A stretch of DNA of 64,000 nt from Candidatus Delongbacteria bacterium (GTDB taxonomy: Bacteria; CAIWAD01), in assembly GCA_041675285.1 (NCBI GenBank), contig JBAYTZ010000014.1:22891-86890 (forward strand). The letters run 5' to 3'. The position numbers and the translations under genes are program-made. Each line of letters starts with the position of its first letter. The stretch's first letter is position 1. The notes beneath the pieces are model-generated. The model ran no database searches, was not told the DNA's origin, and was given only the letters and a program-made list of their open reading frames with translations. Positions 22,313 through 51,319 of this stretch are shown here, piece after piece.

Positions 22313-22323
22313 GAGGATCCATC

Positions 22324-29604: not shown

Positions 29605-30036
29605 ATGAGCACCACCCAACCCATCAAAGACATCTGCGCGGCCCACAGCGCGGGGCGCGAACAAGGCCTCGTCATCGAGGAGGCGGACACCCTGGCAGCC
29701 AAGGAAATGGCAAGCCTCATATACGTCAACGACGAACTCCGGCGAGCCTATGTCCTGGGGATCGAATGGGGCCAGGCTGTCCGCCAGCGGGCCATGGCAC
29801 GCGACGCGGCCAATCCCCTCAAGGCGCTGGTGGACGCGCGGAAGGCGCTGGCCGATGCAGACATCTCCATCCTCTGCCCGGGCGAAGGTGATGTCGAGCT
29901 CGCCAGCGTGGCCGATTCCATCACCCGGATGGCCACGGCACTCCGCAAGGCCCACCAAGAGATTGCAGCAGCCCACCAGGTCCTGGATGCCGCCGGCGTG
30001 CCGCATGTCATGCCCTGCCAGGCCAGCCAGAACTGA
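29605..30036 (+). CDS. hypothetical protein
   Basis: ATG in frame within track ORF 29485..30036. Confidence 0.4.
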   Translation: MSTTQPIKDICAAHSAGREQGLVIEEADTLAAKEMASLIYVNDELRRAYVLGIEWGQAVRQRAMARDAANPLKALVDARKALADADISILCPGEGDVELASVADSITRMATALRKAHQEIAAAHQVLDAAGVPHVMPCQASQN

Positions 30037-30050
30037 AAGGGCGGACAAGT

Positions 30051-30272
30051 ATGCGATTCGACATCCCCTACTGGTTGAACGACGAACAGCGTGACACGCT
30101 GCTGGAGAATTGGGATCGCTACCAGGCCATCGTGGTCGCACTCTTAAGCCCGGCCACATCAAGATCAACCCCCATCGATGATGCCGTGCGCTTGACGCTC
30201 TCCGAGGCGGCATGGAAGAAGGATCTGCTGCAGCGGCAGGCTGCGCGCACCACTTCAGGCGGGACTTCATGA
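30051..30272 (+). CDS. hypothetical protein
   Basis: 73 aa. Confidence 0.3.
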   Translation: MRFDIPYWLNDEQRDTLLENWDRYQAIVVALLSPATSRSTPIDDAVRLTLSEAAWKKDLLQRQAARTTSGGTS

Positions 30273-30739
30273 GCGACACCAAGGCCCAGATGGCCAGGCT
30301 CAACGAGCGCATGGACAAGGCTGCCGAGTTCATGCGCGAGTTCAAGATTGAAGTCCTGGAACGCATTGAGCGCCTGGAACAGCGCGTCACAACGATCGAA
30401 CAGGCCCTGGGCGACCACCTTCGCGAGCACCAAGCCCGGGACGCGGCCAGCCCGCCGCCCAGGCCGCGGGCGCCGCGCGTCGTGCGCACGCCTGGCGGGA
30501 AGATCCGGGATCCCCTACTGGCAGCACTCAGCGCGCGGAAGGCGGACATCGGGCTCAACACCAGGCAGTTGGCCGGGCTGCTGGGCTACCCCCGGAACAC
30601 AGTTTCGAATTGGCTGAATCGAGTCAATGCGCCGACTCACCCGGGTGACCGCGCGCGCATCCACGAGTGGGTCAGCCTGGCAGAAAACGCGCCGGCGCGT
30701 TTGATCCGCGAGTGGCGAGAGGAGACAGACCGTGGATGA
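30269..30739 (+). CDS. hypothetical coiled-coil protein with a C-terminal HTH-like segment
   Basis: RQLAGLLGYPRNTVSNWLNR. ATGA coupling. Confidence 0.4.
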   Translation: MSDTKAQMARLNERMDKAAEFMREFKIEVLERIERLEQRVTTIEQALGDHLREHQARDAASPPPRPRAPRVVRTPGGKIRDPLLAALSARKADIGLNTRQLAGLLGYPRNTVSNWLNRVNAPTHPGDRARIHEWVSLAENAPARLIREWREETDRG

Positions 30740-31276
30740 ACCATGGACCCGAATTCTGGACGTGCCCGATCGCAAACCCGGGCAGTCGGGCAGAAATGGA
30801 GATTCCGTGATACAAACTGACAGGAGTATTTTGCCCGACTGCCCGAGTTTGCCTTCGGGCAGTTCGAATACAGGCAACCAACGTGTAGCTTTGAAAAAGC
30901 CCGAAGTCCTGCCCAAAGTACATCCCATGGGGGTGTCACCCCCCCCTGAGAAATCAAAAAACCTACCCGCGGGACTCCGCCCGCACGAACTCAGTTTTTT
31001 TCTCCTTTTAAGAAGTAAATGCCAGTGCGGGCAGAGTCCCGCGGGAAGTCGCTTTTTCGTCTTACAGACCCAAGGTGACACCCCTGGGAAAACAGGTTTG
31101 GGCGGTCTTTGGTCTAACACCTCAGGGTGGGAGATTCGTCACTCCCAAGGCGAACGCCGCAATTCCGCCCTAACCGCCGGTCTTCCTCCTGTCCCCCCAT
31201 GCCGCCGCCGCGCGGCCGCAGGCGCGCCCCACCACGCCGCGAACGCCATCAGCCGAACCCACGGAAGGATCCTCCC
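30740..31276. promoter_or_regulatory. 0.5-kb structured non-coding region: several hairpins including a 21-bp-stem hairpin (30966-30986 / 31025-31045, 38-nt loop with T7 run) flanked by inverted GGGGTGTCACCCC / GGTGACACCCC motifs
   Basis: Inverted repeats read directly from the sequence. No credible ORF. Lies between the regulatory/replication genes and the nuclease gene. Confidence 0.5.
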
Positions 31277-32665
31277 ATGACGACGCCACACGCGGCGCCT
31301 CTGACGCCCTGCTGCCCTAACCTGCCCCTCCTGGACCCCAAGCTCCCCGATGGCTTCCAGGTCCACAACGAGCACTGGTCCTTCTCCCGGCTGGACACCT
31401 ACGCCAGGTGCCCCCTCGCCTACAAGGCCAGGTACCTCGACCCCCAGATCTACGGCGCCGACTACGTCAAGCCCTTGCCAGACCCCAGTAGCCCGGCCGT
31501 CCTCGGCACCCTCTGCCACCGGACGCTGGAACTCGCCGGACTGACTCTCAAGCAAGCACGCCACATGGGCAGGCTCTTCCGCCAACAGAAGCTCATCCTC
31601 GACTGCCTCCACCAGGCCTTCCAAGAGAAGCCCGAAAAAGGCGACGTCATCCACACCGGCCAGGTCCTGGCCGATGCCCAGGCCATCCTTGTTGAGTACC
31701 TGAAGAACGGCGACTTCTACGCCGACCAGATCCTCGGCCTGGAGTGGCCCTTTGACTTCGTCATCGAAGACCCCCTGGGAGACATCCGCATCATCGGCTT
31801 CATCGACCGCCTGGAAATGACGCCCGAAGGCGTAGTGCGCCTCAAGGATTACAAGACCAACCGCATGCTCTACACCAAGGACGAGCTCAGGCAGTCCCTC
31901 CAGGCCTCCATCTACGAGCTGGCCGTCCGCGACAGCGAAGCCCTGGCCGTCACACCCGACACGCCCGTCGACTTCGAGTTCGTCCTCTTGCGCCATGGCC
32001 TGTCCCAGCGAACCACGCGCTCGGAGAGCGACCTGCAGCTGGCCGTCCACCAGATCACCTGCCTCGTCCACCGCTGCGAAGGGTCGCGCACCTTTCCCGC
32101 TCAGCTGAACAAATACTGCGCCTACTGCGACCACAAGGTCCAGTGCCCCTTTTGGCGGGAAGTGGTCGCACGCGGCCTGCCCCAGGCCCACGTCGGCGCC
32201 AGCGATCTGTCCGCCATCGCCGTCGAATACGAACGCATGACCGACGCCGCCAAGGTCCTCTACGCCCGGAAGGAGGAGATGGCCGACCTCATGAAGATCC
32301 ACCTCATCGGAAGCGAGCAGATCGAGACGCCCACACACCTCTTCCGCACCAGCGCCAACAATGAGACCACCTTCAGCGATCCCTTCCGCGTCGCCAAGCT
32401 CCTCGCCCAGGTCTACCACCGGCCCGTCAGTCAGGTCCTGCGACGCATCGGCCGCATCTCCAAGACTGAGTTCGACGCCGTCATGAAAGACGCCGAGCAG
32501 CGCGTGACCGCCACGGCCCTTGCCGAACTGAAGACGGAGCTGGAACCGCTCATCGAGACCATGCCCAACCCCAAACTCCAGGCCTACAAGCGCCCCGTGG
32601 AGGCGGAAGGGCAGCCGGCCAAACGGGTGAAGCGGCCCCAGGTGAAGCGCAGGCTGAAGGTTTGA
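31277..32665 (+). CDS. PD-(D/E)xK nuclease, Cas4/RecB-family, with C-terminal Fe-S cysteine cluster
   Basis: HWSFSRLDTYARCPLAYKARYLD (N-terminal Cys), IIGFIDRLE...VRLKDYKT (D...ExK), CAYCDHKVQCPF (three C-terminal Cys). RBS GGAAGGA. Confidence 0.7.
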   Translation: MTTPHAAPLTPCCPNLPLLDPKLPDGFQVHNEHWSFSRLDTYARCPLAYKARYLDPQIYGADYVKPLPDPSSPAVLGTLCHRTLELAGLTLKQARHMGRLFRQQKLILDCLHQAFQEKPEKGDVIHTGQVLADAQAILVEYLKNGDFYADQILGLEWPFDFVIEDPLGDIRIIGFIDRLEMTPEGVVRLKDYKTNRMLYTKDELRQSLQASIYELAVRDSEALAVTPDTPVDFEFVLLRHGLSQRTTRSESDLQLAVHQITCLVHRCEGSRTFPAQLNKYCAYCDHKVQCPFWREVVARGLPQAHVGASDLSAIAVEYERMTDAAKVLYARKEEMADLMKIHLIGSEQIETPTHLFRTSANNETTFSDPFRVAKLLAQVYHRPVSQVLRRIGRISKTEFDAVMKDAEQRVTATALAELKTELEPLIETMPNPKLQAYKRPVEAEGQPAKRVKRPQVKRRLKV

Positions 32666-32848
32666 ACGCGGTCTGAGGGTACTGACAATTGAACCTGACA
32701 AGACCTCAAGTTGATGTCAGATCAAGAAAATTGAGCGGAAAATGAAGCTAGAAACGGTTGGGGATACGCAGCGTGAGCCCGCCGGCCCTGGATGCCCCGG
32801 CCGGCCTGTCTGGAGCTGGGGCAGCTTGACTTCAACGCGGAGGCCAGC

Positions 32849-33562
32849 ATGAAGCCGGAACCGGGGAAAGTGGACACGGGAACCCGCGGGGGATTCGGCC
32901 GGTCCCCGCGCTGCAACCGGGAGCTGGAGGACGGCCGGCTTTGCCGCCAGCCGGTCCCGATGGCGGGCATGCGCTGCTACCTGCACCAAGCCAAGCCGGA
33001 GGACCTGGTCCCGGCGCCGGACTTGCCCGCGGGCGTGGTTGTCCCGTCCCTCTTCCAGGACCCGGCTTGGCAGTTGTCCCTGGTCGGGTTCGTGGCTGAC
33101 ATTTACCGCGACTACGCCGGGCTCAATAAAGGCGCGGACCTGCGCCAGATCCTGGCGGCCGGCGCGGCCCACGTGCGGCTGACCTACGGCATGGAGGCTC
33201 TGGAGCCGAAGGACATTGAGCTGCTGTCCAGGGTGGTGGACAGGCACCTGCGCAACCTGCGGGCGACGCCCAAGGAACAGGAGGCCGGCCGGGCCGGGAA
33301 GGACGGCAAGGGTGCCCTGGGTGCCTTGGCTGCCGGCGTCCAGGTGGGCGCCTTGCTGGAACGCGTCCGTGGGGCGCTGTCGCCGGCCCAGCGACGCGCG
33401 CTGGCCGCGGGCCGGCCCATCGCCGGCGCGGAGGTCCTGCAGGCAAACGCGCCGGCTGTGGCCCCGGACGAGGCTGAGGTCTTGGACGACGAGGACGACC
33501 TTGGCGTGCCCAGACCCATCGGCCTGGCGGGCGAGGACCTTCCGCCGGACCCGTTTGCCTGA
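32849..33562 (+). CDS. hypothetical protein with an N-terminal C/H-rich segment (ends ...PPDPFA)
   Basis: Plausible composition, whereas the overlapping minus-strand ORF is R/G/Q-rich. Start uncertain (32792 or 32849). Confidence 0.4.
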   Translation: MKPEPGKVDTGTRGGFGRSPRCNRELEDGRLCRQPVPMAGMRCYLHQAKPEDLVPAPDLPAGVVVPSLFQDPAWQLSLVGFVADIYRDYAGLNKGADLRQILAAGAAHVRLTYGMEALEPKDIELLSRVVDRHLRNLRATPKEQEAGRAGKDGKGALGALAAGVQVGALLERVRGALSPAQRRALAAGRPIAGAEVLQANAPAVAPDEAEVLDDEDDLGVPRPIGLAGEDLPPDPFA

Positions 33563-33883
33563 AAACCGCGAAAAAACGTCCAGGATCATGCCGCCCCGCC
33601 TTGGGGCGGCATTTGTGTGTCAAAGGGATCGCCCACCAGGTGCGTGCGAAAATGTCCGAGAATGGCTGTTCCCGGACGTTGGCGCGGGCATAGAGTGCGT
33701 ACATCACCTGCCGGCAGCCTGGCAAACGGGTGGGCCGGGGGGTGGTCTGGCGCAAAGCGGCAGGCCCCGCCGGGGCATCTTGGCTGTAAGGGGTGCTTTT
33801 GCGCACGCGTAGCTGGCCTATATGCAGAAGCTCCAGTGCTATACTCTTCCACCAATCTTGTTGCCTATTCAAGCAGGAAAGCT

Positions 33884-36800
33884 ATGAGCGACTCCACATC
33901 AGGGCGAAGCCTTTTCATTGTTGACAACAGCGTCTCCAACTGGACTGGAATCCGATATCTAGATGAATGGGCCGGCATCGCCAAATCCTTCGACGTGGCG
34001 ACCGGCTACTTCGAGATCGGCGCCCTTTTGGCCCTGGATGGCAAGTGGCAAGGATTGGACAAGCTGCGCATCCTCATGGGGGCGGAAACCACTCAACGCA
34101 CGCGCCAGGCGCTGCGCGAGGCGGTCACTTCGCGAGCGACGAATCGGCTGGACAACAGCCTGGAGGAGGAGAAGGATGCCAACCCTTTCCTCCGCGGCGT
34201 GCCGGCGATTCTCGATGCCCTGCGGCGCGGCCAGATTGATGTCCGGGTCTACGACAAGGACAAGTTCCACGCCAAGGCCTACATCACACACGCCAAACTG
34301 GAAGTCGTCGGTTCCCAGGCCCTGGTTGGCTCCAGCAACTTCACTCGACCAGGCCTGACCAAGAACATCGAGTTGAACATCCAGGTCCAGAGCGCGCGGG
34401 AAGTGGCGCAGCTCCAGGAGTGGTTTGAAATCCACTGGAATGACGCCCGTGAGGTGACAGACGCGGTCATTCGCATCATCGAGCGCCAAACGCAGGAGTA
34501 TGCCCCATTCGAGATCTATGCCAAGGCCCTTCAGGAGTATTTCCGCGGACATGAGCTGACGGACACTGAGTGGGAAGATGGGCAGTCGCGCATGTTTCCC
34601 GTGTTGGATCGTTACCAGAAAGAGGCCTATTGGAAGCTGCAAAAGATTGCCCATGCCCATGGTGGGGCCTTCCTCTGCGACGGGGTGGGTTTGGGTAAGA
34701 CTTTCGTGGGACTGATGCTCATTGAGCGCTTGATCCTGCACGAGGGCAAGCGGGTGGTGCTCTTCGCGCCCAAGACCGCCAAGGAAGGGGTCTGGGAGCG
34801 GGACCTGAAGCGCTATCTGCCTCACATCGGCGGCATTAGCGGCGGCGCGGATTTCAGCAATCTGGCCGTCTTCAGTCACTCGGACTTGGGACGCAAAGGA
34901 GATTTCCCCGAGCGCTTCCGGCGAATGACGGAGTTGGCCGATGTGGTGATCGTGGATGAGGCGCATCACTTTCGCAACCCCGGCACCCCAGGGGACGCGG
35001 ATGCAGAAGTGGAGCCCTCCCGCTACTTCCAGCTCTTCAACCTCCTCGACAACACGCAACGATCCAAGACGCTCTACATGCTGACGGCCACGCCCATCAA
35101 CAACAGCTTGCATGATTTCCGGCACATGGTGGAGCTGTTCTCGCGTCGCCAGGAGGATTGGTTCAAGTCCCTGGGCATCCACAACCTGCGTGCCCACGTC
35201 AACAAGCTGGAGCGGGACCTGCGCCAGCGCATGGCGAGTGCAGCTGTGGCAAAAACCCAGTCGACGGAAGTCGCCCTGGGCGAACTGACGACGGAGCTGC
35301 AGGAAGTCCTCGCCGCGGATCCGCTGATCGGTGAGTTGGTGGTCCAGCGCAGTCGCTCCTATGTGCGGGAGAGCCAGTTGCGTGAGCATGGCAAGGCGGC
35401 GGTCTTCCCCGTGCGCAGGCCCCCCCAGGTGGCGGACTACAGCATCCGCAAGAGTTACGGACGCTTGCTGGAGATCTTTGAGCTGGCCTTCCGCAAGGAA
35501 CACCCGCTGTTTTCGCTGCCCATGTACTACCCCTTGGCCTTTCCTCGGGTTGAGGATGGCAGCGTGGATCCTTTCGAGGAGAGCCGACAGAAGGAGGTGG
35601 TGGGGCTCATCCGCACCCAGTTCCTGAAGCGCTTCGAAAGCTCGGTGGCGTCCTTTGAGATTTCCTGCGACCGGCTGTTGAAGAAGCTGCTCGCTTTCCT
35701 GGAGATCCATTGCGAGACGGAGCGGGAGCGCAGGTTGCTGGAGCGCTGCCTCCTGCAGCACAAAGACGTGCTGGGCTTTGTCCATTCCCGGCAGAGCGAG
35801 ATCTGGGAGAGCGAGGCCGGTGAAGAGGGCGAGAGCGACTTGATACCACCCGAGTTCCTGGCCCGGGTGACCAAGCTGGATCGCGCCGAGTACCGCGTGG
35901 AAGACATGATCCAGGAGACCCTGCAAGATGTGAACCAGATCGCGGCCTTCTTGGAGGAAGCCAGGCATTTCCAGCCCAAGCATGACGACAAGCTGCGTCG
36001 GCTGGTGCGCCTGCTGAAGTCCAAGGAACTGGCGGGACAGAAGGTGCTGGTGTTCACCGAGTACGCCGACACGGCCCGCTACCTGAAGCGCCAATTGCGT
36101 GCGGAGGGCATTGAAGGCGTCGGTGAGGTGGACGGCGGCACGCCGGGCAGCCGCGCCCAGGTGATTGCCCGGTTCGCGCCCTATTACAACGGACACAGCT
36201 CTGCTGAGATGGAGGCGGAAGGAGGCGAGATCAGGGTGTTGATTTCCACCGACGTCCTGTCGGAAGGCCTCAACCTCCAGGACGCGTCACGGATGATCAA
36301 CTACGACATCCACTGGAACCCCGTGCGCTTGATGCAGCGCATCGGCCGTGTGGACCGCCGCTTGAATCCGGAAGTGGAGGCGCGCCTTCTGGCGGACCAT
36401 CCCGAGCTGAAGGGCTCGCGCGGCATCGTCCACTACTGGAATTTCCTCCCGCCCGATGAGCTGAACCAGTTGCTTAGTCTCTACACCATCGTCACGCGCA
36501 AGACTCTGCTGATCTCGCGGACTCTGGGCATTGAAGGCGGCAAGCTGCTTCGGCCGGAGGACATGTACGACGACCTCAAGGTCCTCAATGCCCATGACGC
36601 GGCCTACGAGGGCTCGCGCACCGTGGTCGAGGACTTGCACTTGGAATACCAGGCCTTGCTGGCTGCGATGCCGGAGCTGGAGGCGAAGTTGAAAGCGCTA
36701 CCGGGGGCTGTGTTCAGTGGCCGGGAGGCAGTGACAGCAGGTCTACGCGGCGTGTTTTTCTGCTACGCCCTGCCTGCTCTGGACCTGGAGACCGGCGAGT

Positions 36801-37054
36801 TCAGCCTGACGGCCGGCCCCACCCGCTGGTACTTGGCCGACCTGGAGCAAAACCGCATCCTGGAAGAGCCGGGCGAGATCGTCGAGCATGTGCGCAGCAC
36901 GCCGGAGACGGCGCGGCGCTGCCAAATGGATGAGGTCCTGCTAAAGGACTGGCGCGGGCGCGTCGAGAAGCACATCAAGAACACCTACCTCAAGCGCGTG
37001 GACGCTCCCATCGGCGTCAAGCCGGCTCTGCGTTGCTGGATGGAGGTCAATTGA
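33884..37054 (+). CDS. PLD-nuclease (HKD) domain fused to an SNF2-family helicase (SNF2_N + Helicase_C)
   Basis: HKD motif FHAKAYITHAKLEVVGSQALVGSSNF. Helicase motifs LCDGVGLGKTF (I), VIVDEAHHFRN (II), LISTDVLSEGLNLQD (V), QRIGRVDRR (VI). AGGAAAG RBS. Confidence 0.85.
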   Translation: MSDSTSGRSLFIVDNSVSNWTGIRYLDEWAGIAKSFDVATGYFEIGALLALDGKWQGLDKLRILMGAETTQRTRQALREAVTSRATNRLDNSLEEEKDANPFLRGVPAILDALRRGQIDVRVYDKDKFHAKAYITHAKLEVVGSQALVGSSNFTRPGLTKNIELNIQVQSAREVAQLQEWFEIHWNDAREVTDAVIRIIERQTQEYAPFEIYAKALQEYFRGHELTDTEWEDGQSRMFPVLDRYQKEAYWKLQKIAHAHGGAFLCDGVGLGKTFVGLMLIERLILHEGKRVVLFAPKTAKEGVWERDLKRYLPHIGGISGGADFSNLAVFSHSDLGRKGDFPERFRRMTELADVVIVDEAHHFRNPGTPGDADAEVEPSRYFQLFNLLDNTQRSKTLYMLTATPINNSLHDFRHMVELFSRRQEDWFKSLGIHNLRAHVNKLERDLRQRMASAAVAKTQSTEVALGELTTELQEVLAADPLIGELVVQRSRSYVRESQLREHGKAAVFPVRRPPQVADYSIRKSYGRLLEIFELAFRKEHPLFSLPMYYPLAFPRVEDGSVDPFEESRQKEVVGLIRTQFLKRFESSVASFEISCDRLLKKLLAFLEIHCETERERRLLERCLLQHKDVLGFVHSRQSEIWESEAGEEGESDLIPPEFLARVTKLDRAEYRVEDMIQETLQDVNQIAAFLEEARHFQPKHDDKLRRLVRLLKSKELAGQKVLVFTEYADTARYLKRQLRAEGIEGVGEVDGGTPGSRAQVIARFAPYYNGHSSAEMEAEGGEIRVLISTDVLSEGLNLQDASRMINYDIHWNPVRLMQRIGRVDRRLNPEVEARLLADHPELKGSRGIVHYWNFLPPDELNQLLSLYTIVTRKTLLISRTLGIEGGKLLRPEDMYDDLKVLNAHDAAYEGSRTVVEDLHLEYQALLAAMPELEAKLKALPGAVFSGREAVTAGLRGVFFCYALPALDLETGEFSLTAGPTRWYLADLEQNRILEEPGEIVEHVRSTPETARRCQMDEVLLKDWRGRVEKHIKNTYLKRVDAPIGVKPALRCWMEVN

Positions 37055-37923
37055 TGCCCCGCAAGAAGCAGGATGCCGATCCGCCGACCCTGGGTCGCGG
37101 AGGAGAGATCGTCCTGTTCCAGGAAGGTGGCGTGGGGCGTCTGGAAGTCAGGCTGCAGGGGGAGACCCTCTGGCTGAGCCTGCAGCAGCTGGCCGATCTC
37201 TATCAGCGCGACAAGTCGGTCATTTCCCGCCATCTGCGAAGCATCCTCGCCACGGGGGAGTTGGAGCGTGAGGTAGTTGTTGCAAAAAACGCAACAACTG
37301 CCGCCGACGGCAAGACCTATCAGGTGGACTTCTACAACCTGGACATGATCATCTCCGTCGGTTACCGCGTTCACTCCTTGCGCGGCACCCAATTCCGCAT
37401 CTGGGCCACCCGCACCCTGAAGGACACTTTGGTGCGCGGCTACACGTTGAACGAGAGTCGCCTGCAAGCCCAGGTGGAACGCCTGGAGGGCCTGCTGGCC
37501 GCCGTCCAATTGGTGGGGCGCGTCGCCACGGAGCGCTCCCTGAGCAGCGGCGAGGCCAAGGGCCTGCTCAAGGTCGTGGGCGACTTCTCGCTGGCGCTGG
37601 ACCTGCTGGACCAGTATGACCACGGCCGCCTCTCTCTACGAAGCACGACGGCCAGCGCGGGCCGCGTCCTGGAAGAAACCCGCAGACGCAGGCCCGCGCC
37701 CCGCTGCGCCCTGGTGCTGGGCCGGGTGGACGCCAAGCGGACGCCGGACCGCGCCGCGCCGGTTCTTGCTGGCCGGGGCCTTTGGGCTGCCCGTCCTAAC
37801 CGTCCGCCAAGACGCCCAGCTGGCCACGGCTTTGGGGGTTGGATATGTCCCGTCCGCATCCAGCCGGGGGGCGCGGAAGACCTGGAAGCCGTGGCAAAGT
37901 GGATTGATGGAGGAAAACCGTGA
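37054..37923 (+). CDS. RhuM-family (virulence protein RhuM-like) protein; C-terminal ~90 aa atypical and possibly degenerate
   Basis: LFQEGGVGRLEVRLQGETLWLSLQQLADLYQRDKSVISRHLRSI...DFYNLDMIISVGYRVHSLRGTQFRIWATRTLKD is the RhuM signature. Distal part is R/P/G-rich. Start overlaps the upstream stop. Confidence 0.65.
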   Translation: MPRKKQDADPPTLGRGGEIVLFQEGGVGRLEVRLQGETLWLSLQQLADLYQRDKSVISRHLRSILATGELEREVVVAKNATTAADGKTYQVDFYNLDMIISVGYRVHSLRGTQFRIWATRTLKDTLVRGYTLNESRLQAQVERLEGLLAAVQLVGRVATERSLSSGEAKGLLKVVGDFSLALDLLDQYDHGRLSLRSTTASAGRVLEETRRRRPAPRCALVLGRVDAKRTPDRAAPVLAGRGLWAARPNRPPRRPAGHGFGGWICPVRIQPGGAEDLEAVAKWIDGGKP

Positions 37924-39203
37924 TGGTCGACAAGGGCTTTCCAGCCGGTTACGAGCCGCAGGGGAGCACTGAGGCTGCCGAGTGGTACCGCCTAGCCGCT
38001 GAGCAAGGGAATACAATGGCCCAGCGCAATCTGGGGGTCATGTACTACAACGGCGAGGGCGTGCTGCAAGACTACACAGAGGCTGTCAAGTGGTTTCGAC
38101 TAGCGGCTGAGCAGGGGTACGCGCCGGCTCAGTATAACCTGGGGGTTGCGTGCGCCAAGGGCCTGGGCGTGCCGCAGGACTACGTTGAGGCCGTCAAGTG
38201 GTACCGCCTGGCTGCTGAACATGGGAACGCAGGAGCCCAGTTAAATCTGGGATTCTTGTACCACAGCGGCGAGGGCGTGCCGCAGAACGGCGCTGAAGCC
38301 GTCAAGTGGTACCGCCTTGCGGCGGAGCAAGGCAATGTAAGTGCCCAGAACAACCTGGGAGTCATGTACAAGAGCGGCCAGGGTGTGCCGCAGGACTACA
38401 TTGAGGCCGTTAAGTGGTACCGCCTTGCGGCGGAGCAAGGACATGTAAGTGCCCAGAACAACCTGGGGGACATGTACAGTGGCGGCCAAGGCGTGCCGCA
38501 GGACTACGCAGAGGCCGCCAAGTGGTCCCGCCTTGCCGCGGAGCAGGGGTGCGCGCCGGCACAGTACAATCTAGGGGTTGCATGCGCCAAAGGCAGGGGC
38601 GTGCCGCATAACGACGCAGAGGCAGTCATGTGGTACCGCCTAGCCGCTGCGCAGGGGTACGCACCGGCTCAGTACAACATGGGAGTCATGTACGACGACG
38701 GCCGAGGCGTGCCGCAGGACTACGTTGAGGCTGCCAAATGGTACCGCCTAGCCGCTGAGCAGGGCCATGTAAGTGCCCAGAACAACTTGGGGGGCATATA
38801 CGGCGGCGGACAAGGCGTGCCGCAGGATGACGCAGAGGCTGCCAAGTGGTTCCGCCTAGCAGCGGAGCAAGGCCATGTAGGTTCCCAGTACAACCTGGGG
38901 GTTGCGTGCCACCTCGGCCAAGGCGTGCCTCAGAACTACGCGGAAGCAGCCAAGTGGTACCGCCTAGCCGCTGAGCATGGGTACGCACCGGCTCAGTACA
39001 ACCTGGGTGTCATGTACAACGACGGCCGAGGCGTGCCGCAGGACTATATCATGGCTCACCTGTGGTGGAACCTTGCTGCCACCAGCGGGGATGAGGACGC
39101 GGTGAGGGGTAGAGGCACTGTGGCTGGCAAGATGACCCCTGCCCAAATCGCAGAGGCGCAACGTCTCGCCCGCGAGTGGAAGCCCACACCGGAGAAGCCA
39201 TGA
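37923..39203 (+). CDS. Sel1-repeat (SLR/TPR-like) protein, ~11 tandem 36-aa repeats
   Basis: Repeating AEAVKWYRLAAEQG.A.AQ.NLG.MY..G.GVPQDY units. GGAGG RBS. Stop overlaps the methyltransferase start. Confidence 0.85.
   Translation: MVDKGFPAGYEPQGSTEAAEWYRLAAEQGNTMAQRNLGVMYYNGEGVLQDYTEAVKWFRLAAEQGYAPAQYNLGVACAKGLGVPQDYVEAVKWYRLAAEHGNAGAQLNLGFLYHSGEGVPQNGAEAVKWYRLAAEQGNVSAQNNLGVMYKSGQGVPQDYIEAVKWYRLAAEQGHVSAQNNLGDMYSGGQGVPQDYAEAAKWSRLAAEQGCAPAQYNLGVACAKGRGVPHNDAEAVMWYRLAAAQGYAPAQYNMGVMYDDGRGVPQDYVEAAKWYRLAAEQGHVSAQNNLGGIYGGGQGVPQDDAEAAKWFRLAAEQGHVGSQYNLGVACHLGQGVPQNYAEAAKWYRLAAEHGYAPAQYNLGVMYNDGRGVPQDYIMAHLWWNLAATSGDEDAVRGRGTVAGKMTPAQIAEAQRLAREWKPTPEKP
37960..39110 (+). repeat. DNA-level tandem repeat (period 108 bp) encoding the Sel1 repeats
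   Basis: Recurring ...gtggtaccgcct.gc.gc.gagca.gg... units visible in the sequence. Confidence 0.6.
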
Positions 39204-42200
39204 GCAAGACCCAAGACCGGAACTGGGAGCGCCTGCGCTCCATCAAGACGATCGAGGAGCTGCTAGCCTATTTGAGGGAGGAGCTTGACTGGCCGCTCGA
39301 AGGCGCGGACGTCGAGGACGTCGCCTTCGAATACACACCCGAGGAGCTGGGCCTGGAGCCCGCCCTGGCGGTTAAGATCGATTCCATTCACCGTCTGCGT
39401 CCGCTGAGCACGCACCAACCCTGGGGCATTTTCTTCGTCGACTTCGAGCCCAAGAATCTGCCCGTCACGGCCCTGCGCCGCATCCTGGGCCGCGTGGTCT
39501 TGAAGAAGCGCGCCAAGGGCAGCGCGCAGGCCTGGCACGCAGACGACCTGCTCTTCATCTCCACCTACGGGCAAGGGCCCAGCCGCCAGATCTGCCTGGC
39601 GCACTTCTCCGCCAGCGAGGGAGCGCGCGACCTACCCACCCTCAAGGTGCTGGGCTGGGACGAGCAGGACACGGCACTGCACCTTGCCCACGCCGCCAAC
39701 ACCCTGGTCAAGCACCTCACGTGGCCGGAAAACGAGAACGACCTGGAGATCTGGCGCAAGACTTGGAGCGCAGCCTTCACGCTGGGGCATCGGGAAGTCA
39801 TCTCCACGGCCAAGGATCTCTCCATTCGGCTGGCGGCGCTGGCGAGGGCGATTCGCCTGCGCATCACCACGGCGCTGGCGATCGAGAGCGAGAGCGGCCC
39901 GCTCACGCGTCTGATGCATGCCTTCCGCGAGGCCCTGGTCCACGACCTGACGGTGGAGAGCTTCGCCGACATGTACGCCCAGACCATCGCCTACGGCCTG
40001 CTCTCGGCGCGCATCACTGATCCACACAAGAAGACTGCTGACGATTTCGCAGGTCACTTGCGCACCAACCCCTTCCTGCGGGAGCTGATGGAGACCTTCC
40101 TGAAGGTGGGTGGACGGCAAGGGAAAGCGGGCGGGTCAGGCATCGACTTCGATGAGCTGGGCGTCTTCGATGTGGTGGAGCTGCTGGACGACGCCAACAT
40201 GGAGGCCGTCGTCCGCGACTTCGGCGACAGGAACCCACAGGAAGACCCAGTCATCCATTTCTATGAGGAGTTTCTTCGGCATTACGATCCAGGTGAGAAG
40301 AAAAAGCGTGGCGTCTTCTACACGCCGCGCCCGGTGGTAAGCTACATCGTGCGCTCGGTGGACGAGCTGCTGCGAACGGAGTTCGGCCTGGAGGACGGGC
40401 TGGCCGACACCACCACGTGGGGCGAGATGCTACAGCGACAGCCCGGCCTGCAGCTGCCCAACCTCTCAGAGGACTCCGACCACCCGCGCCTGCTGGACCC
40501 GCAGCATCCCTTCGTGCAGATCCTCGACCCGGCCACGGGCACGGGCACCTTCCTCGTTGAGGTCATCGAGATCATCCACCGCACGATGACCACCAAGTGG
40601 ACGGCCCACGGTCACAGCGAGAAGCAGATCGAGGCGCTCTGGAACGCCTATGTGCCGCGCCACCTGCTGCCGCGCCTGCACGGCTACGAGCTGCTCATGG
40701 CGCCCTACGCCATCGCCCATCTCAAGATCGGCCTCAAGCTCCATGAGACGGGCTACCACTTCGACAGCGAGGAGCGGGCACGCATCTACCTGACCAACGC
40801 CCTGGAGCCGGCCAACGACAAGCAGATCACGACGGCCATGCTGCCGGCGCTGGCGCACGAAGCTCAAGCGGTCAGCATGATTAAACGTCACCAAAGGTTC
40901 TCCGTCATCATTGGTAATCCTCCATATGCAAGAGATTCCGCAAACCGCAGTGATTATGCGGAGAATCTCGTAGCAATCTACAAGGAGGACGTGAGGAATG
41001 AACGAAACATCCAACCTCTGTCTGATGACTATGTGAAATTCATCGGGATGGCTCAAGCCGTAATGTCATCATGCGGTACAGGAATTGTTGGATTCATCAC
41101 AAATCACAGCTTTATTAAGGGAGTAATTCATCGAGGGCTAAGAAGACGTGTTTGTCAGTTCTTCCAGAGGGCATACTTTTTGGACCTTCACGGCAACTCG
41201 AACATCAACGAGCAGCCGCCAAAGGACATTGAGGACGAAAACGTCTTTGACATTCGACAAGGTGTTGCAGTCTCATTGCTGACCAGAGTTTCCGCTGTTG
41301 TTGGTTATAAAGACCAAACTAAAGTTTCTGAACTCTGGGGAAAGCGGACAGAGAAATATGAATATTTACTGAAGCAAAGACATGGTGATAATGATTGGAT
41401 TCTCGTTGAACCAAAACCGCCGGAATACGAACTCATTGTAGCCGGTGATGGATCTACTCAAGTTGAATTTGATTCGTTATTCCACCTGCATGATTGGTTT
41501 CCAACTTCAGCGACTGGATTTATCACGCACCGTGACGAATTGGTGATCGATTATGATCAGTCAAACCTTATGCGAAGGATTCACGATTTAGTGGATAAAA
41601 ATATTTCTGATGAAGAGGTTATCAAGAAATATTCCTTAGAGAGCAATTCGGACTGGAATCCAATTGATGCTAGAAAACAACTTCGGGCAGTAAAGGAGTT
41701 ACAAGAAAGAGTTGTTCGTTGCACTTATCGCCCGTTTGATAGTAGATGGTGCTGGTGGGGACGAGAACTAATGGATCGCCCGCGTCAGGAGTTATTTGAG
41801 TTTTTCGTAAAACCTAACTTGACGCTGTTATGTAAACGACAGAACAAAAGGACTCCTTTCTCTTACGCATTTGTTGCCTCTGAAATAACAGAAAGTTGCA
41901 CATTTGAGAGTGCACATGCGAATAATGTTGCGTTTCCAATCTTCGTCCACACAAATGACCTGTTGTTTGGGAAGAACATCATTCATCCAAACATTGGTGA
42001 TGAAATTGTAAGTAGAGTTCGAAGACGGCTTAATTTGAATTTAGTTTCGCTTGCTATGGGTGATTTGAAGGTGACCTGCGGGCCGCGCGATTTATTGCAC
42101 TACGTATATGCAACCATTCATGCACCTAGCTACCGGACGAGATATGAGGCGTGCCTGATTAAAAGCTTCCCGCGCATTCCGTTGACATATAATCTGGACC

Positions 42201-42715
42201 TGTTCCGCGACCTCACACTTTTTGGCGGCAGGCTCGTCGCTTTGCATCTGCTGGAGTCGCCCACCCTCGACCACTTCATCACCACCTACGCCGGCCCGCC
42301 CCAACCAGAAGTCGGGCGCGTGGGCTGGTCGGATGGCACAGTCTGGTTGGATGCCGCGGCCACCAAGAAAGGGCAGCCCGCCACGCCCGGCAGAATGGGC
42401 TTCAAGGGCGTGCCCGAGGAAGTCTGGAACTTCCACATCGGCGGCTACCAGGTCTGCGAGAAGTGGCTGAAGGACCGCAAGGGGCGGCGGCTGTCGGACG
42501 AGGACATCGCCCATTACCAGAAGATTGTCGTGGCGCTGAAGGAGACGATCCGCCTGATGGGCGAGATCGACGAGGTCATTGAGAAGCATGGCGGGTGGCC
42601 GGGGGCGTTTGCCGCAGGACCGGCGGCGGGTGCGGCGGACTATCCGACCTGCGAGACGGGGCAACGCAAGGCGGCGGAAACGGGCGACCTGTTTGGGCAA
42701 AATGCGGAGTCTTGA
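39200..42715 (+). CDS. type IIG restriction-modification / PglX-like gamma-class N6-adenine DNA methyltransferase (1171 aa), GC-mosaic
   Basis: Motif X/I GVFYTPRPVVSYIV and LDPATGTGTFLVEV, motif IV VIIGNPPYARDS, long C-terminal TRD-like region. GC drops from ~65% to ~40% between ~40860 and ~42200 within the ORF. Confidence 0.85.
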   Translation: MSKTQDRNWERLRSIKTIEELLAYLREELDWPLEGADVEDVAFEYTPEELGLEPALAVKIDSIHRLRPLSTHQPWGIFFVDFEPKNLPVTALRRILGRVVLKKRAKGSAQAWHADDLLFISTYGQGPSRQICLAHFSASEGARDLPTLKVLGWDEQDTALHLAHAANTLVKHLTWPENENDLEIWRKTWSAAFTLGHREVISTAKDLSIRLAALARAIRLRITTALAIESESGPLTRLMHAFREALVHDLTVESFADMYAQTIAYGLLSARITDPHKKTADDFAGHLRTNPFLRELMETFLKVGGRQGKAGGSGIDFDELGVFDVVELLDDANMEAVVRDFGDRNPQEDPVIHFYEEFLRHYDPGEKKKRGVFYTPRPVVSYIVRSVDELLRTEFGLEDGLADTTTWGEMLQRQPGLQLPNLSEDSDHPRLLDPQHPFVQILDPATGTGTFLVEVIEIIHRTMTTKWTAHGHSEKQIEALWNAYVPRHLLPRLHGYELLMAPYAIAHLKIGLKLHETGYHFDSEERARIYLTNALEPANDKQITTAMLPALAHEAQAVSMIKRHQRFSVIIGNPPYARDSANRSDYAENLVAIYKEDVRNERNIQPLSDDYVKFIGMAQAVMSSCGTGIVGFITNHSFIKGVIHRGLRRRVCQFFQRAYFLDLHGNSNINEQPPKDIEDENVFDIRQGVAVSLLTRVSAVVGYKDQTKVSELWGKRTEKYEYLLKQRHGDNDWILVEPKPPEYELIVAGDGSTQVEFDSLFHLHDWFPTSATGFITHRDELVIDYDQSNLMRRIHDLVDKNISDEEVIKKYSLESNSDWNPIDARKQLRAVKELQERVVRCTYRPFDSRWCWWGRELMDRPRQELFEFFVKPNLTLLCKRQNKRTPFSYAFVASEITESCTFESAHANNVAFPIFVHTNDLLFGKNIIHPNIGDEIVSRVRRRLNLNLVSLAMGDLKVTCGPRDLLHYVYATIHAPSYRTRYEACLIKSFPRIPLTYNLDLFRDLTLFGGRLVALHLLESPTLDHFITTYAGPPQPEVGRVGWSDGTVWLDAAATKKGQPATPGRMGFKGVPEEVWNFHIGGYQVCEKWLKDRKGRRLSDEDIAHYQKIVVALKETIRLMGEIDEVIEKHGGWPGAFAAGPAAGAADYPTCETGQRKAAETGDLFGQNAES

Positions 42716-42750: not shown

Positions 42751-43455
42751 ATGGAACCAGGTCCGATCCGTTACCGGGACTTGCCGGATGATTTCCTGCT
42801 GCGGGCGGAATTGGTTTTTCACGCCATTGAAGATGCCGGCCTGATGGAGCGAACGGATTTCCTCGTCAACTTCCAGCGCGAGATTCATCCCATGCGGGAA
42901 TTGATGCTGTGGGAGCGGCTTGCCGTGGCCTATCGGAGCCGGTGGCGCAACCGAGCGGGCTCGGTCGCGGAGCGCAAGTCGTGGTTGACCTTGCTTCTTC
43001 TGGCATCCAGTGGCGCGACGGCACATGAAGGGGATCTGACTGGGGCACTGGAGCTGGAAGAAGCGCGCTTGGCCTTTCAGGAGGCCGCCACGGCGGGTAG
43101 AAACTGCTTGTCGAGCGCCGTTGATGCGCGTGCGGTGAAACAAAGCACCCTGGCGTTGGCGGCGATTCTGAGTCGGGACATTGGTCGTGCCATTCAATTC
43201 CACTGGAACCAGATCGACCGGCTGTTGGAATCGGAAGCATGGGAACCGGATGAGGTGGAAGCTCGGCTGCGAGAACTGCATGCCACGGTGGACGAACTGG
43301 CTGATGAACGCGAAAACCTGTCAATAGAACTCAATGACCGGTCTGATGAGCTGGAAGCCATGATCCAGGGGAAGCGCGAGATACTTGAAAGGGAGCGTCG
43401 CGAGGAGCTGCTGCGGCAATCCAGTCTGGGCAATCTATTCGGCGAGGAGAACTGA
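42751..43455 (+). CDS. hypothetical coiled-coil protein (first gene of a 3-gene operon)
   Basis: GAGGTGA RBS. 234 aa. C-terminal coiled coil (ELHATVDELADERENLSIELNDRSDELEAMIQGKREILERERREE). Confidence 0.45.
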   Translation: MEPGPIRYRDLPDDFLLRAELVFHAIEDAGLMERTDFLVNFQREIHPMRELMLWERLAVAYRSRWRNRAGSVAERKSWLTLLLLASSGATAHEGDLTGALELEEARLAFQEAATAGRNCLSSAVDARAVKQSTLALAAILSRDIGRAIQFHWNQIDRLLESEAWEPDEVEARLRELHATVDELADERENLSIELNDRSDELEAMIQGKREILERERREELLRQSSLGNLFGEEN

Positions 43456-43456
43456 G

Positions 43457-44620
43457 ATGGACGTGCTGGAACTCCAACACATCGGGCAAATCCAAAAAGC
43501 CCGAATCGAGTTTGGGGATCTCACCGTTTTGGTGGGTCCTCAAGCCACTGGCAAGAGCATAACACTACAGCTACTCAAGTTGTTGGTTGACATGCGCCAC
43601 GTTCAGGAAGACCTTCGTCGTCACGGCTTGGACTGGGGCGGCAAGCTGCCTGAGTTCCTTGACCTCATGCTTGGCGAAGGCATGCACTCCATCTGGTCTG
43701 AGAAGAGCACGATTCGCTGGCAGAACCGCGATGTGGACATGGTAGCGCGCGCCAAGCGTCGCATCAAGGCGCCTGAGCTTGGGCAAGGAGAGCAGATGTT
43801 CTTCATCCCAGCGCAACGAGTATTGACTCTGCGCGACGGCTGGCCGCGCCCCTTCACTGATTACTCCGCCGGTGATCCCTTCGCAGTGCGGGAGTTCAGC
43901 GAAAAGTTGCGCCTGCTGATGGAGCAGGAATTCGTTCAGGGTGATCAGCTCTTTCCACGCGCTAATCGGTTGAAACAAATCTATCGAGACGAGTTACGTG
44001 CTCACGTGTTCGCCGGGTTTGATTTGAAGGTGGACCGTTCCCGACCACAGAAGCGTATGGTTCTAGGTAATGCACATGGCGAACTCCCGTTTATGGTTTG
44101 GTCGGCGGGGCAACGAGAATTCATGCCGCTATTGCTCGGCCTCTATTGGTTGATGCCACCCGGGAGAATGGCAAAGCGGAAGTCCGTGGATTGGGTTGTT
44201 GTAGAAGAGCTTGAAATGGGGCTCCATCCGCGAGCTATCAGCCTGATGTTACTGCTGGTGCTGGAGTTGCTCTCACGCGGCTATAGAGTCTGTTTGTCGA
44301 CACACTCACCACAAGTCTTAGAAATGGTTTGGGCCTTGAATCACTTACGTGAGCAGAATTCCAGTGAGTCAAAGTTAGGCAGATTGTTTGACGTGCAAGC
44401 TGGCACTCAATTAAAGGCTGTTTTTCATGATACAATGAAGCGAGTGTTTAAGGTCTACTATTTCGAGCGTGATGGTGCAGTACGAAACATTTCTGGGCTT
44501 GATCCAGGTTCAACAGAGTCCTTTGTTGCAGGTTGGGGAGGCCTAACGGACTTCAGTGCAAGAGCCAATGAAGTTGTGGCATCTGCCGTGGCTGATGGGC
44601 TGCGGAGGCGCAAAGCATGA
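43457..44620 (+). CDS. ABC-type (AAA_15/AAA_21-like) ATPase of the OLD/abortive-infection type
   Basis: Walker A LVGPQATGKS. Distal D-loop/Walker B block DWVVVEELEMGLHP typical of the AAA_21 family. Start 2 nt after the upstream stop. Confidence 0.7.
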   Translation: MDVLELQHIGQIQKARIEFGDLTVLVGPQATGKSITLQLLKLLVDMRHVQEDLRRHGLDWGGKLPEFLDLMLGEGMHSIWSEKSTIRWQNRDVDMVARAKRRIKAPELGQGEQMFFIPAQRVLTLRDGWPRPFTDYSAGDPFAVREFSEKLRLLMEQEFVQGDQLFPRANRLKQIYRDELRAHVFAGFDLKVDRSRPQKRMVLGNAHGELPFMVWSAGQREFMPLLLGLYWLMPPGRMAKRKSVDWVVVEELEMGLHPRAISLMLLLVLELLSRGYRVCLSTHSPQVLEMVWALNHLREQNSSESKLGRLFDVQAGTQLKAVFHDTMKRVFKVYYFERDGAVRNISGLDPGSTESFVAGWGGLTDFSARANEVVASAVADGLRRRKA

Positions 44621-45072
44621 CTTTCACACAAGCAGTTGCAGCCTCACCTGACATTGCAAGCGCATATCAGCGAGGTTTAGGAGCATTGAAGGCTGTAGAT
44701 CGTGCTCATATTACGGTCAATAAGTCCACAAAACTCAAGGGAAGTGTTGATATTGATTCAACGTTGCAATCTAAGTGCCCAACTGAACACCGTTGGGATT
44801 ATGGGATTGGTAAGTCACAGGGTGGGAAGAAGGGTGATAAAGTCATCTGGGTTGAAATCCATCCAGCAAAAGACGGTGAAATCAATACGATGATGGACAA
44901 ATTGGCCTGGTTGAAGTCTTGGCTTCAGACATCCGCTACTGACTTGGATGCATTGTCGCGTGAATTCATATGGATATCAAGCGGAAAAACTACCATCACG
45001 CAAGGTAGCCCCGCAGCGAGAAAAATGGCCTTGGCTGGGTTGAGATTAGCGGGACATCATCTTCATCTTTGA
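44617..45072 (+). CDS. hypothetical small protein (151 aa) translationally coupled to the ATPase
   Basis: 4-nt ATGA overlap with the ATPase gene. No recognisable motif. Confidence 0.45.
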   Translation: MTFTQAVAASPDIASAYQRGLGALKAVDRAHITVNKSTKLKGSVDIDSTLQSKCPTEHRWDYGIGKSQGGKKGDKVIWVEIHPAKDGEINTMMDKLAWLKSWLQTSATDLDALSREFIWISSGKTTITQGSPAARKMALAGLRLAGHHLHL

Positions 45073-47289: not shown

Positions 47290-47562
47290 TCATGCCTCCT
47301 GACTGGGCGGGGCAGGCGGCAGTTTGGCTTCCAGGTTACTGGCCACCAGCTCCAGACTGCCCTTCAGCTCCTCCAGGCGGCCCATCACTGCGCCCATCTG
47401 TTGCTGCAACTCGGCGTCCTGCCCAAGCTGCAGGAATGCCTGCTGAAGGGCGACCTCCAGGCGAGTCACCCGCTTGCGCGCGCCGTCCAGATTTGTCTTG
47501 CCTTCCGCCAACTGCCCGGCCACAAAGGCCTTCACGTCCCAGTTCTGCTTTGCCATGATCAA
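47290..47562 (-). CDS. hypothetical coiled-coil protein
   Basis: ORF track. Confidence 0.35.
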   Translation of the reverse strand: MIMAKQNWDVKAFVAGQLAEGKTNLDGARKRVTRLEVALQQAFLQLGQDAELQQQMGAVMGRLEELKGSLELVASNLEAKLPPAPPSQEA

Positions 47563-49599: not shown

Positions 49600-49723
49600 G
49601 GGGTCTCCGTGGTTGGGTGGCGGCAAGGCGGGATCGCAAGGTCCCGCCCGCGCATGTCTCTGGACATGAGTCTGCACTAGTCGGGTCCGAAAGTCAAGTC
49701 TCAACCCATTGAGAGTAAACGAG

Positions 49724-51310: not shown

Positions 51311-51319
51311 GAGGGCTCG

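Follow-up and report, generated by a model that had tools for sequence, protein, structure and literature searches.

Type IIL and Type ISP restriction-modification (RM) enzymes modify one strand of asymmetric sites (PMC3874165). In the MANTIS/Gao_RL/BREX-related (BR) type 2 systems asymmetric sites are hemimethylated, a dimer of MtsD forms one phospholipase D (PLD) site, and restriction favours inverted sites; that study could not reconstitute MtsD activity in vitro (bioRxiv 10.64898/2026.09.23.753747). In this study, a window of 64,000 nucleotides (nt) from a Candidatus Delongbacteria bacterium (contig JBAYTZ010000014.1, positions 22,891 to 86,890) was analysed, in which four plus-strand genes, here called g1 to g4, occupy positions 33884 to 42715. 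The first, g1 (33884-37054), encodes a protein of 1056 amino acids (aa) in which a PLD (HKD) nuclease domain is fused to an SNF2-type ATPase of superfamily 2 (SF2), and is the predicted restriction (R) subunit. The last, g4 (39200-42715), encodes an N6-adenine methyltransferase of 1171 aa with a target-recognition domain, the predicted modification/specificity (M/S) subunit. Between them lie g2 (37054-37923; 289 aa), a truncated RhuM, and g3 (37923-39203; 426 aa, or 427 aa from an in-frame GTG at 37920), a Sel1-repeat protein. We observed that the functional core consists of the two genes g1 and g4, not of all four, and on balance these two probably constitute a two-subunit ATP-dependent RM system, like a split Type ISP enzyme or a MANTIS system without its loader.

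Comparison with described systems

The methyltransferase-specificity region of g4 is homologous to that of the Type ISP enzymes LlaGI and LlaBIII, and the predicted logic is shared as well, since a nuclease, an SF2 motor, a gamma-type N6-adenine methyltransferase and a specificity domain are combined for asymmetric sites. However, these parts form a single polypeptide in Type ISP and are divided over two genes here; the nuclease is of the Mrr-type PD-(D/E)XK kind there and HKD/PLD here, the motor is related to Type I HsdR there and SNF2-type here, and where Type ISP has a coupler region g4 has an unrelated N-terminal domain (N-domain) of 345 aa. With the Type IIL/IIG enzymes (DrdV, MmeI and Cj0031-like), g4 has in common its size and the order of the methyltransferase and specificity domains, DrdV being the best solved relative. 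Those enzymes carry an N-terminal PD-(D/E)XK nuclease of their own and need no ATP or partner, whereas the N-domain of g4 has no such motif or family match and g4 is nearly always coupled to a PLD-SNF2 gene. Type III systems (Mod and Res) also consist of two genes, one for methyltransferase and specificity and one for an SF2 ATPase-nuclease, working on asymmetric, hemimethylated and inversely oriented sites, but this likeness is one of analogy and not homology, as Mod is beta-class and Res has a C-terminal PD-(D/E)XK nuclease and belongs to another SF2 family.

MANTIS/BR type 2 shares with the pair an N-terminal single HKD/PLD domain fused to an SF2 helicase-like ATPase (MtsD there, g1 here), together with a separate N6-adenine methyltransferase (MtsC there, g4 here), which in MANTIS provides both sequence recognition and the self mark. 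It differs in that loading of its methyltransferase depends on MtsA, an AAA+ ATPase with DUF499, and on MtsB, a small DUF3780/3870 protein, and genes of the MtsA/MtsB type are absent from the window and from beside the pair in relatives. Furthermore, g1 is distant from the PLD anti-phage family, and g4 has a full Type ISP-type specificity domain in addition to its distinctive N-domain.

Class 1 DISARM likewise contains an SNF2 helicase, a large N6-adenine methyltransferase and a PLD nuclease, the last being a separate protein (DrmC) there and fused to the helicase here. An earlier reading of this stretch from its letters (the original prediction) had equated the helicase and methyltransferase with the DrmD and DrmMI pair of DISARM and had called g4 PglX-like, and neither assignment survived comparison with curated models. 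In NCBIfam, DISARM_DrmD reached 140.6 bits with g1 against a cut-off of 610. In PADLOC, g4 matched the REBASE-derived REase_MTase_IIG model at 1e-181, as against 1.2e-5 for PglX (residues 439-640 only) and 1.2e-3 for DrmMI. The absence of DrmA/DrmB and PglZ/BrxC, which had also been claimed, was confirmed by Pfam, which detected no DUF1998/DrmA, PglZ, BrxC, DUF499 or DUF3780 among the likely genes of the window; DUF499, DUF3780 and DUF1998 were not conserved beside the pair in the related loci sampled either. With such poor DrmD, DrmMI and PglX scores, and with DUF1998, PglZ, BrxC and DUF499 missing, the pair is neither DISARM nor BREX, and both candidates were rejected. The suggestion of a minimal RM-like system, made of a Type IIG-like methyltransferase and a PLD-helicase, holds up.

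With reference to the literature, the sole mention of this pairing that we found is a passing one by Milman et al. 2023 (NAR 51:553, Table 3), where a coding sequence for a PLD and SNF helicase stands beside a Cj0031-like 'Type II RM' coding sequence, the pairing being recorded as a target of programmed inversions. By its description this is the same gene pairing, given there as genomic context only and neither named, surveyed nor tested, and we found it named, surveyed or tested nowhere else. The present locus differs from those in that no inverted repeats indicative of an inversion shufflon were found in the window. PADLOC has generic models for both proteins. The module is of the kind of an ATP-dependent RM-like defence; it is widespread and experimentally uncharacterised.

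Conserved pairing of g1 and g4

A scan of species-representative genomes returned 190 relatives, 80 of which were kept, and 85 related loci (numbered from L001) were examined in all. The relatives belong to more than 12 phyla, including Acidobacteriota, Gemmatimonadota, Chloroflexota, Spirochaetota, Pseudomonadota, Planctomycetota, Actinomycetota and Elusimicrobiota, a patchy spread at 60-70% identity that points to horizontal transfer. The co-occurrence of PLD-SNF2 proteins with such methyltransferases, which the original prediction had proposed as a check, was observed almost throughout, as a g4 homologue lies 3' of g1 in 81 of the 85 loci, and in two of the four exceptions the contig breaks off about 200 nt past g1. 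In 72 of the 73 loci in which both ends could be placed, the g1 stop and the g4 start are separated by -19 to +28 nt, with a mode of +4 nt (45 loci), and a Shine-Dalgarno-like GAGG lies within the last g1 codons of related loci. Three neighbourhoods were read directly, and in each g1 is followed at once by a protein of 1189-1340 aa with N6_Mtase and Type_ISP_C domains; in L001, which is syntenic with the window and has a 97% identical g1, the two genes overlap by 4 nt. Pairwise distances of g1 are correlated with those of g4 residues 1-550 (Mantel r = 0.55), and none of 999 permutations gave a value as high. Judging from these sequence comparisons, g1 and g4 are co-inherited as a conserved unit. 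As for the linkage of the genes in homologues, on which the earlier four-gene reading depended, RhuM and Sel1 are indeed unlinked from the pair, and the opposite applies to g1 and g4, which are nearly always adjacent.

When the open reading frames (ORFs) flanking the pair to a distance of about 6 kb were clustered across the sampled related loci, no conserved third gene emerged, and the commonest neighbour is a reverse transcriptase (RT), in about 16 loci. In L005 (17182-20964), a reverse transcriptase of 1260 aa starts 4 nt past the g4 homologue and matches the PADLOC model Drt1a with 1234 bits (DRT type 1, RT-nitrilase). In two clusters, comprising 10 and 6 loci of different phyla, a similar ORF of about 1270 aa comes after g4; the Drt1a identity was confirmed for L005 only. 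These observations suggest a recurrent cassette of the RM-like pair and DRT1.

Domain structure of g4

In Pfam, g4 matches N6_Mtase, Eco57I (1.2e-8), MmeI_Mtase (8.3e-7) and Type_ISP_C (PF18135; 1.9e-75). The strongly conserved, family-specific N-domain (39200-40234, +) is followed by the methyltransferase catalytic core (40316-40927, +), with FYTPR at residues 373-377, motif I DPATGTGTF at 443-451 and motif IV NPPY at 573-576, and then by the Type_ISP_C specificity domain (residues 766-1121; 41495-42562, +), which covers profile positions 2-341 of 342. The solved structures aligning to residues 439-1094 are those of DrdV (7lo5; 4.2e-31), LlaBIII (3.3e-24) and LlaGI (6.7e-22), and on these alignments and the PADLOC scores above g4 is to be placed as Type ISP/IIL-like rather than PglX-like.

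Conservation along g4 is uneven, the identity to homologues being 41-81% (mostly 55-80%) over residues 1-550, 18-30% over residues 700-950 and 54-61% over residues 1000-1150, a profile that looks like that of an RM specificity subunit. The hypervariable block, a putatively swapped specificity module (residues about 568-1000; 40900-42200, +), begins at NPPY and has a GC content of 0.38-0.50 against 0.65 on either side, with sharp steps at about 40.9 and 42.15 kb. It is not alignable to the otherwise syntenic L001. Low GC also marks the corresponding blocks of L001 and L089, so that the specificity modules of g4 appear to circulate between hosts. Programmed inversion of the specificity region was considered and discarded, because no meaningful inverted repeats were found in the window.

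The N-domain (residues 1-345) has a mean column identity of 77% across phyla, and its alignment contains no invariant PD-(D/E)XK triad (D...ExK). Searches of Pfam (20 members, E<=5), of PADLOC and of PDB sequences by profile returned no match to it, the N-terminal models of MmeI being included, and on balance these observations speak against a nuclease in this domain. At E<1e-30 it is found in 263 50%-clusters, and in the full-length matches among the 150 listed it forms the N-terminus of proteins of about 1060-1380 aa. Many protein-database matches to this domain are fragments of 330-600 aa. Two length classes are seen among the g4 homologues, a short one of about 1120-1200 aa that includes the g4 of the window and a longer one of about 1300-1340 aa, and a few homologues measure near 1500 aa; long-class members (e.g. 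L004:13155-17099 and L005:13156-17178) have a C-terminal extension with a weak Peptidase_S24 match.

Domain structure of g1

Pfam detected PLDc_2 (8.8e-12), ResIII, SNF2-rel_dom and Helicase_C (3e-19) in g1, along with an RE_NgoFVII PLD match. As the original prediction had stated, the PLD domain stands at the N-terminus of the SNF2 protein, with PLDc_2 at residues 104-185 and the motor after it. The PLD/HKD nuclease domain (34061-34438, +) carries a single HKD motif, with H129-x-K131 at 34268 and GSSN (residues 149-152) at 34328, and H129/K131 is the sole H-x-K motif of g1 within a PLD domain carrying the GSSN signature. Among 80 homologues, H129, K131 and G149-S150 are 100% conserved and S151/N152 95-100%. 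The SNF2-type motor (34604-36379, +) displays Walker A GLGKT (269-273), DEAH (358-361), motif III TATPINN and motif VI QRIGRVDR (818-825); in the same homologues, motifs I, II (DEAH), III and VI are 97-100% conserved, and GLGKT, DEAH and TATP are invariant. A conserved C-terminal region of about 225 aa (36380-37051, +) shows 59-81% identity to homologues in 50-aa blocks and has no Pfam match, and could be a contact surface for g4. Because the N-domain of g4 lacks an invariant PD-(D/E)XK triad, the HKD domain of g1 is regarded as the putative nuclease of the system.

The best PADLOC model for g1 is the generic C3a139 'HKD+Snf2' (1.6e-59), and the DrmD (2e-33), BrxH/BrxHII, HmaA and DpdE models match it through the common helicase C-lobe only. 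The NCBIfam model phospholipD_antiphage scored 158 bits against a cut-off of 1100, with the helicase C-lobe alone matched, and none of the seven proteins scanned reached a curated NCBIfam cut-off. The g1 family is very large, with more than 5,800 90%-clusters at E<=1e-10, and its conservation is unusually high, the 120 best relatives listed having 68-97% identity across 99-100% of the query length.

The RhuM-Sel1 insertion and the junction as an apparent cargo site

The original prediction had described RhuM and Sel1 as inserted, and the alignment with L001 bears this out. Positions 1-7206 of L001 align to 29868-37054 of the window with 91.6% nt identity, and the alignment picks up again at 39217, so that 37055-39199 (+) is a 2.1-kb insertion relative to L001 that fills precisely the space from the stop of g1 to the start of g4. 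RhuM and Sel1 were found at the g1/g4 junction in none of the 85 sampled loci, L001 included.

Only the N-terminal RhuM module is present in g2 (residues 1-205; 37054-37668, +). The Pfam match to Virulence_RhuM (1e-22) covers profile positions 2-71 of 252 only, PADLOC reports PDC-S23/S05 matches, and g2 aligns to residues 2-178 only of a 334-aa RhuM. Its closest full-length relative, P0242 (342 aa, RhuM and Fic), is 84% identical over residues 1-205 and diverges past 'TTASAG'. The build of about 330 aa in which a Fic/DOC half follows the RhuM module is not that of g2, where this half is missing. The tail (residues 206-289; 37669-37923, +) is not RhuM and is non-coding-like, being read through to the Sel1 start; its codons have no codon-position GC signature (0.77/0.67/0.69), and no Fic/DOC remnant was found in any of its frames. 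From these alignments, g2 is best described as a RhuM remnant without the Fic/DOC domain.

We had taken the RhuM insertion to be unique to this strain and gave this up, as P0243 (251 aa), from a second lineage, shows the same breakpoint and tail. It lies directly 3' of the PLD-SNF2 protein P0002, which is 81% identical to g1, and is followed by a 272-aa ORF, which could be a shorter Sel1 array, and then by a long ORF that runs off the contig and is only presumed to be a methyltransferase. P0243 shifts frame past 'AAPV', and its stop is the equivalent of window 37797-37799, about 120 nt before the g2 stop, which indicates that the tail tolerates frameshifts. Since RhuM is a remnant and its tail is frameshift-tolerant, the apparent translational coupling of g2 and g3 through their overlap is probably an accident of read-through. 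A metagenome scan with the g2 tail gave one close match, L090, without g1 or g4.

Ten Sel1 repeats were recognized by Pfam in g3 (1.3e-121), which is predicted to be cytoplasmic. Its array (37972-39046) consists of 10 tandem units of 108 nt, 71-79% identical and with higher-order periods of 216 and 324 nt, and could expand or contract by recombination.

Other cargo was noticed between g1 and g4 in three Longimicrobiales loci. L058 (13374-18351) has a 1029-aa TmtA-like (Sacsin/NOV_C) protein together with an AbiL-like AAA_21 ATPase, and L060 (13180-14283) and L083 (13190-13822) have SDH/ClpP-like serine proteases. With these three loci the junction behaves as a recurrent cargo site. The RhuM remnant and Sel1 thus appear, from sequence comparison, to be embedded and partly decayed cargo outside the core mechanism, and the copy in the window is an intact, ordinary member of the family bearing an insertion scar.

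Proposed mechanism and alternative explanations

By homology of the methyltransferase-specificity region to Type ISP/IIL, and by analogy of architecture to MtsC/MtsD of MANTIS and Mod/Res of Type III, the following mechanism can be proposed. The g4 protein would read a short, probably asymmetric sequence through its Type ISP/IIL-type specificity domain and methylate one adenine at the site, motif I and NPPY being intact, so that host DNA would be marked as self by hemimethylation. At unmethylated sites on incoming DNA, g4 would recruit or license g1, the conserved g4 N-domain and the C-terminal region of g1 being the likely contact surfaces of the putative complex, and the SNF2 motor would then move along double-stranded DNA at the cost of ATP. 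As there is one HKD motif per chain, a nuclease site would be formed only when two g1 chains meet, whether as a dimer formed beforehand, as with MtsD and SauUSI, or on converging from inverted sites, the mode of Type ISP, Type III and MANTIS (PMC3874165; bioRxiv 10.64898/2026.09.23.753747). We judge it an even matter whether, beyond this, the pair stands for a distinct and self-sufficient class of ATP-dependent RM, namely a split Type ISP with an HKD nuclease, no AAA+ loader and coupling via the 345-aa N-domain, whose junction serves as a recurrent dock for cargo (RhuM, Sel1, the TmtA-like protein, the AbiL-like ATPase and SDH-type proteases).

It is important to note several points that weigh against a two-subunit RM system. 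The contact between g1 and g4 is deduced from gene coupling, and the family as a whole is known from its sequences. SNF2 motors can remodel or displace proteins instead of translocating over long distances. The analogy with MANTIS is incomplete, because the AAA+ loader and co-factor are absent here. The 2.1-kb interruption of the operon in this window may change how strongly g4 is expressed compared with g1. Some copies decay, as about 10 of 66 g4 homologues with complete frames are truncated to 109-894 aa (e.g. L057, L080, L016 and L018) beside a g1 that looks intact; these may represent frequent inactivation of the methyltransferase gene, or artefacts of assembly or frameshift. Moreover, the AlphaFold2 model of g1 (pLDDT 49.3, pTM 0.32), from a shallow alignment in which most rows are about 70% identical, is too poor for use.

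Four other explanations were weighed against the two-subunit RM system. It is unlikely that g4 is a self-sufficient Type IIG/IIL enzyme comparable to MmeI, DrdV and Cj0031, with the N-domain as its own nuclease and g1 as an accessory or independent protein. Its best PADLOC match (REase_MTase_IIG) and closest solved relative (DrdV) are of that kind, such proteins are annotated by Milman et al. 2023 as Type II RM homologous to Cj0031, and the first 150 residues are modelled as alpha/beta, which would be compatible with a restriction-endonuclease-like fold. Nevertheless, the N-domain stays unmatched in the searches described above, no acidic residue is conserved at the position expected for the 'PD' aspartate, and E83-x-K85 varies (A, Q, R and G substitutions), whereas the HKD residues of g1 do not; moreover, g4 is closely coupled to g1 in 72 of 73 loci, which argues for an obligate partnership. 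Slimmer still is the chance that all four genes belong to a single integrated system, with the RhuM fragment and the Sel1 protein acting as a sensor, a regulator or an abortive-infection arm. The overlap of all four ORFs, each with a Shine-Dalgarno sequence, would fit such a system, as would the position of P0243 after P0002 in the second lineage, the short RhuM-only families among the PADLOC candidates (PDC-S05 models, 138-212 aa) and the Sel1-repeat genes reported in RM-embedded Abi operons (PMC3710099). Against it stand the absence of RhuM and Sel1 from all sampled loci, the syntenic L001 among them, the Fic/DOC domain that P0242 carries and g2 lacks, the non-coding-like tail with its frameshift between lineages, and the unrelated cargo at the same junction in other relatives.

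We give yet less credence to the pair being an incomplete part of some larger system of the BREX, DISARM or MANTIS type, either non-functional or reliant on partners elsewhere. The partial similarity of g1 to DrmD, BrxHII and HmaA could be read in this way, and MANTIS/BR type 2 systems follow the same logic of HKD-helicase and N6-methyltransferase yet require their DUF499 and DUF3780 proteins. However, none of the DUF1998, PglZ, BrxC, DUF499 and DUF3780 partners is encoded by a likely gene of the window and no third gene is conserved around the pair; the NCBIfam scores for DrmD and PLD anti-phage are far below their cut-offs, g4 has a complete specificity domain of its own, and all motifs are under purifying selection across phyla. 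A function outside defence, as an epigenetic regulator or a chromatin or repair module in which an orphan-like methyltransferase accompanies an SNF2 remodeller with a PLD domain of other function, is highly improbable and the least likely of all. SNF2 proteins such as RapA act in transcription, and some Type IIG-like methyltransferases are phase-variable regulators. Such a role agrees poorly with a specificity block that is hypervariable and horizontally swapped, with the patchy, horizontally transferred distribution, with the presence of the pair in integrated elements beside other defence genes, and with an invariant HKD motif of the nuclease type that is accompanied by an RE_NgoFVII PLD match. 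The two-subunit ATP-dependent RM system remains the explanation that we prefer.

If this explanation is true, no simpler system would be known in which a PLD-motor nuclease is directed by a separate methyltransferase/specificity subunit. How this is achieved is a current problem, as the attempt to reconstitute MtsD in the MANTIS study shows. The effector steps of BREX and DISARM are still unclear as well. Two strongly conserved proteins would offer a tractable model for biochemical and structural work, and would link Type ISP, Type IIL, MANTIS and DISARM in evolutionary terms. Thousands of g4-like proteins are probably annotated as stand-alone 'Type IIG' enzymes or as 'hypothetical', and their partners probably as generic helicases. 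A cargo site has been described in Type I RM and Hma operons, and the g1/g4 junction behaves in a similar way, which would be useful for the discovery of new defence genes.

Reading frames and boundaries of the transcription unit

The four ORFs and three start/stop overlaps of the original prediction were re-read in the letters and stand as claimed: TGATG at 37052-37056 (g1/g2), GTGATG at 37920-37925 with TGA at 37921-37923 (g2/g3), and ATGA at 39200-39203 (g3/g4). Its domain calls (PLD, SNF2, RhuM, Sel1 and N6-adenine methyltransferase) were likewise confirmed by Pfam. Of its claim of a single four-gene operon, the overlaps stand; the core unit is g1 and g4, and the four-gene layout is seen only here and probably in one relative. 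A Shine-Dalgarno-like GGAG/AGGA lies 5-9 nt 5' of the start in all four genes. The ATG of g1 is preceded by AGGAAA; a longer g1, an ORF of 1145 aa from GTG 33617, was discarded and 33884 was taken as the start because homologues begin at this same Met. The 5' boundary of the transcription unit is a strong terminator-like hairpin closing the upstream gene (33588-33612, +; an 11-bp stem with 8 GC pairs and a T-rich tail), which leaves a leader of 270 nt before g1. After g4, a hairpin scan found no comparable plus-strand terminator before 45252, so that the unit may reach into the genes 3' of g4. A plasmid megablast of the locus gave a single match of 96 bp, and the exact g2, g3 and g4 proteins co-occur on the source contigs only.

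Genomic surroundings

The operon sits in a defence island of an integrated element. Two integrases were detected, a tyrosine integrase at 5184-6353 and a second integrase on the minus strand at 48751-49752. Synteny between the window and L001 is seen 5' of g1, where a PDDEXK_1 protein and a 256-aa ORF show 93-95% aa identity, and again at 47318-47523; between 42715 and 47318 of the window and in the corresponding 10772-13805 of L001 the genes differ, which marks a variable cargo slot of a shared element. In the window, the region directly 3' of g4 (42751-45072) holds a 234-aa ORF with a coiled-coil C-terminus and no family match, followed by a candidate pair of PDC-M56A, an AAA_21 ATPase (43457-44620; PADLOC 3.5e-150), and PDC-M56B (44617-45072; 2e-44). 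A PDC-M56-like pair also follows g1-g4 directly in L089 (11350-12976), and in none of the 80 species-representative loci.

Two islands of low GC were noticed in the window. On the minus strand at 58546-62376 (GC 0.46-0.50), a HamB-like DEAD-box helicase of 767 aa (59361-61664; 5e-51 with Hachiman HamB models) has upstream of it a 245-aa ORF (61639-62376) without a HamA, Pfam or PADLOC match and downstream of it a 259-aa ORF, and the island may be a divergent Hachiman-like system. The second, at 6878-12704 (GC 0.42-0.47), lies beside the tyrosine integrase and holds five plus-strand ORFs of 226-564 aa that gave no PADLOC match and a single Pfam match (DUF5677, 11820-12704); they are candidates for uncharacterised cargo carried by the element.

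The element also contains a plus-strand helicase/primase block (15226-23688), made up of a DinG-like helicase (15226-17367; 6e-111 with the type IV CRISPR-associated DinG model), a ResIII/Helicase_C protein (17364-19418) that has PbeA-like matches, a Toprim/zinc-ribbon primase-like protein of 1002 aa (19304-22312) and an AAA_23/SMC-like ATPase (22309-23688); no CRISPR array or other cas genes were seen. An unusual piece of cargo in the element is encoded at 26943-28526, a streptopain-like cysteine protease (Peptidase_C10) whose N-terminus carries an Inhibitor_I69 propeptide. Lastly, two ORFs of more than 500 aa without a family (49709-52846) precede an ORF of 1479 aa (52846-57285) whose sole domain is Phage_Mu_F-like and lies near the N-terminus, and which may encode a large protein of several domains that belongs to a phage or conjugative element.

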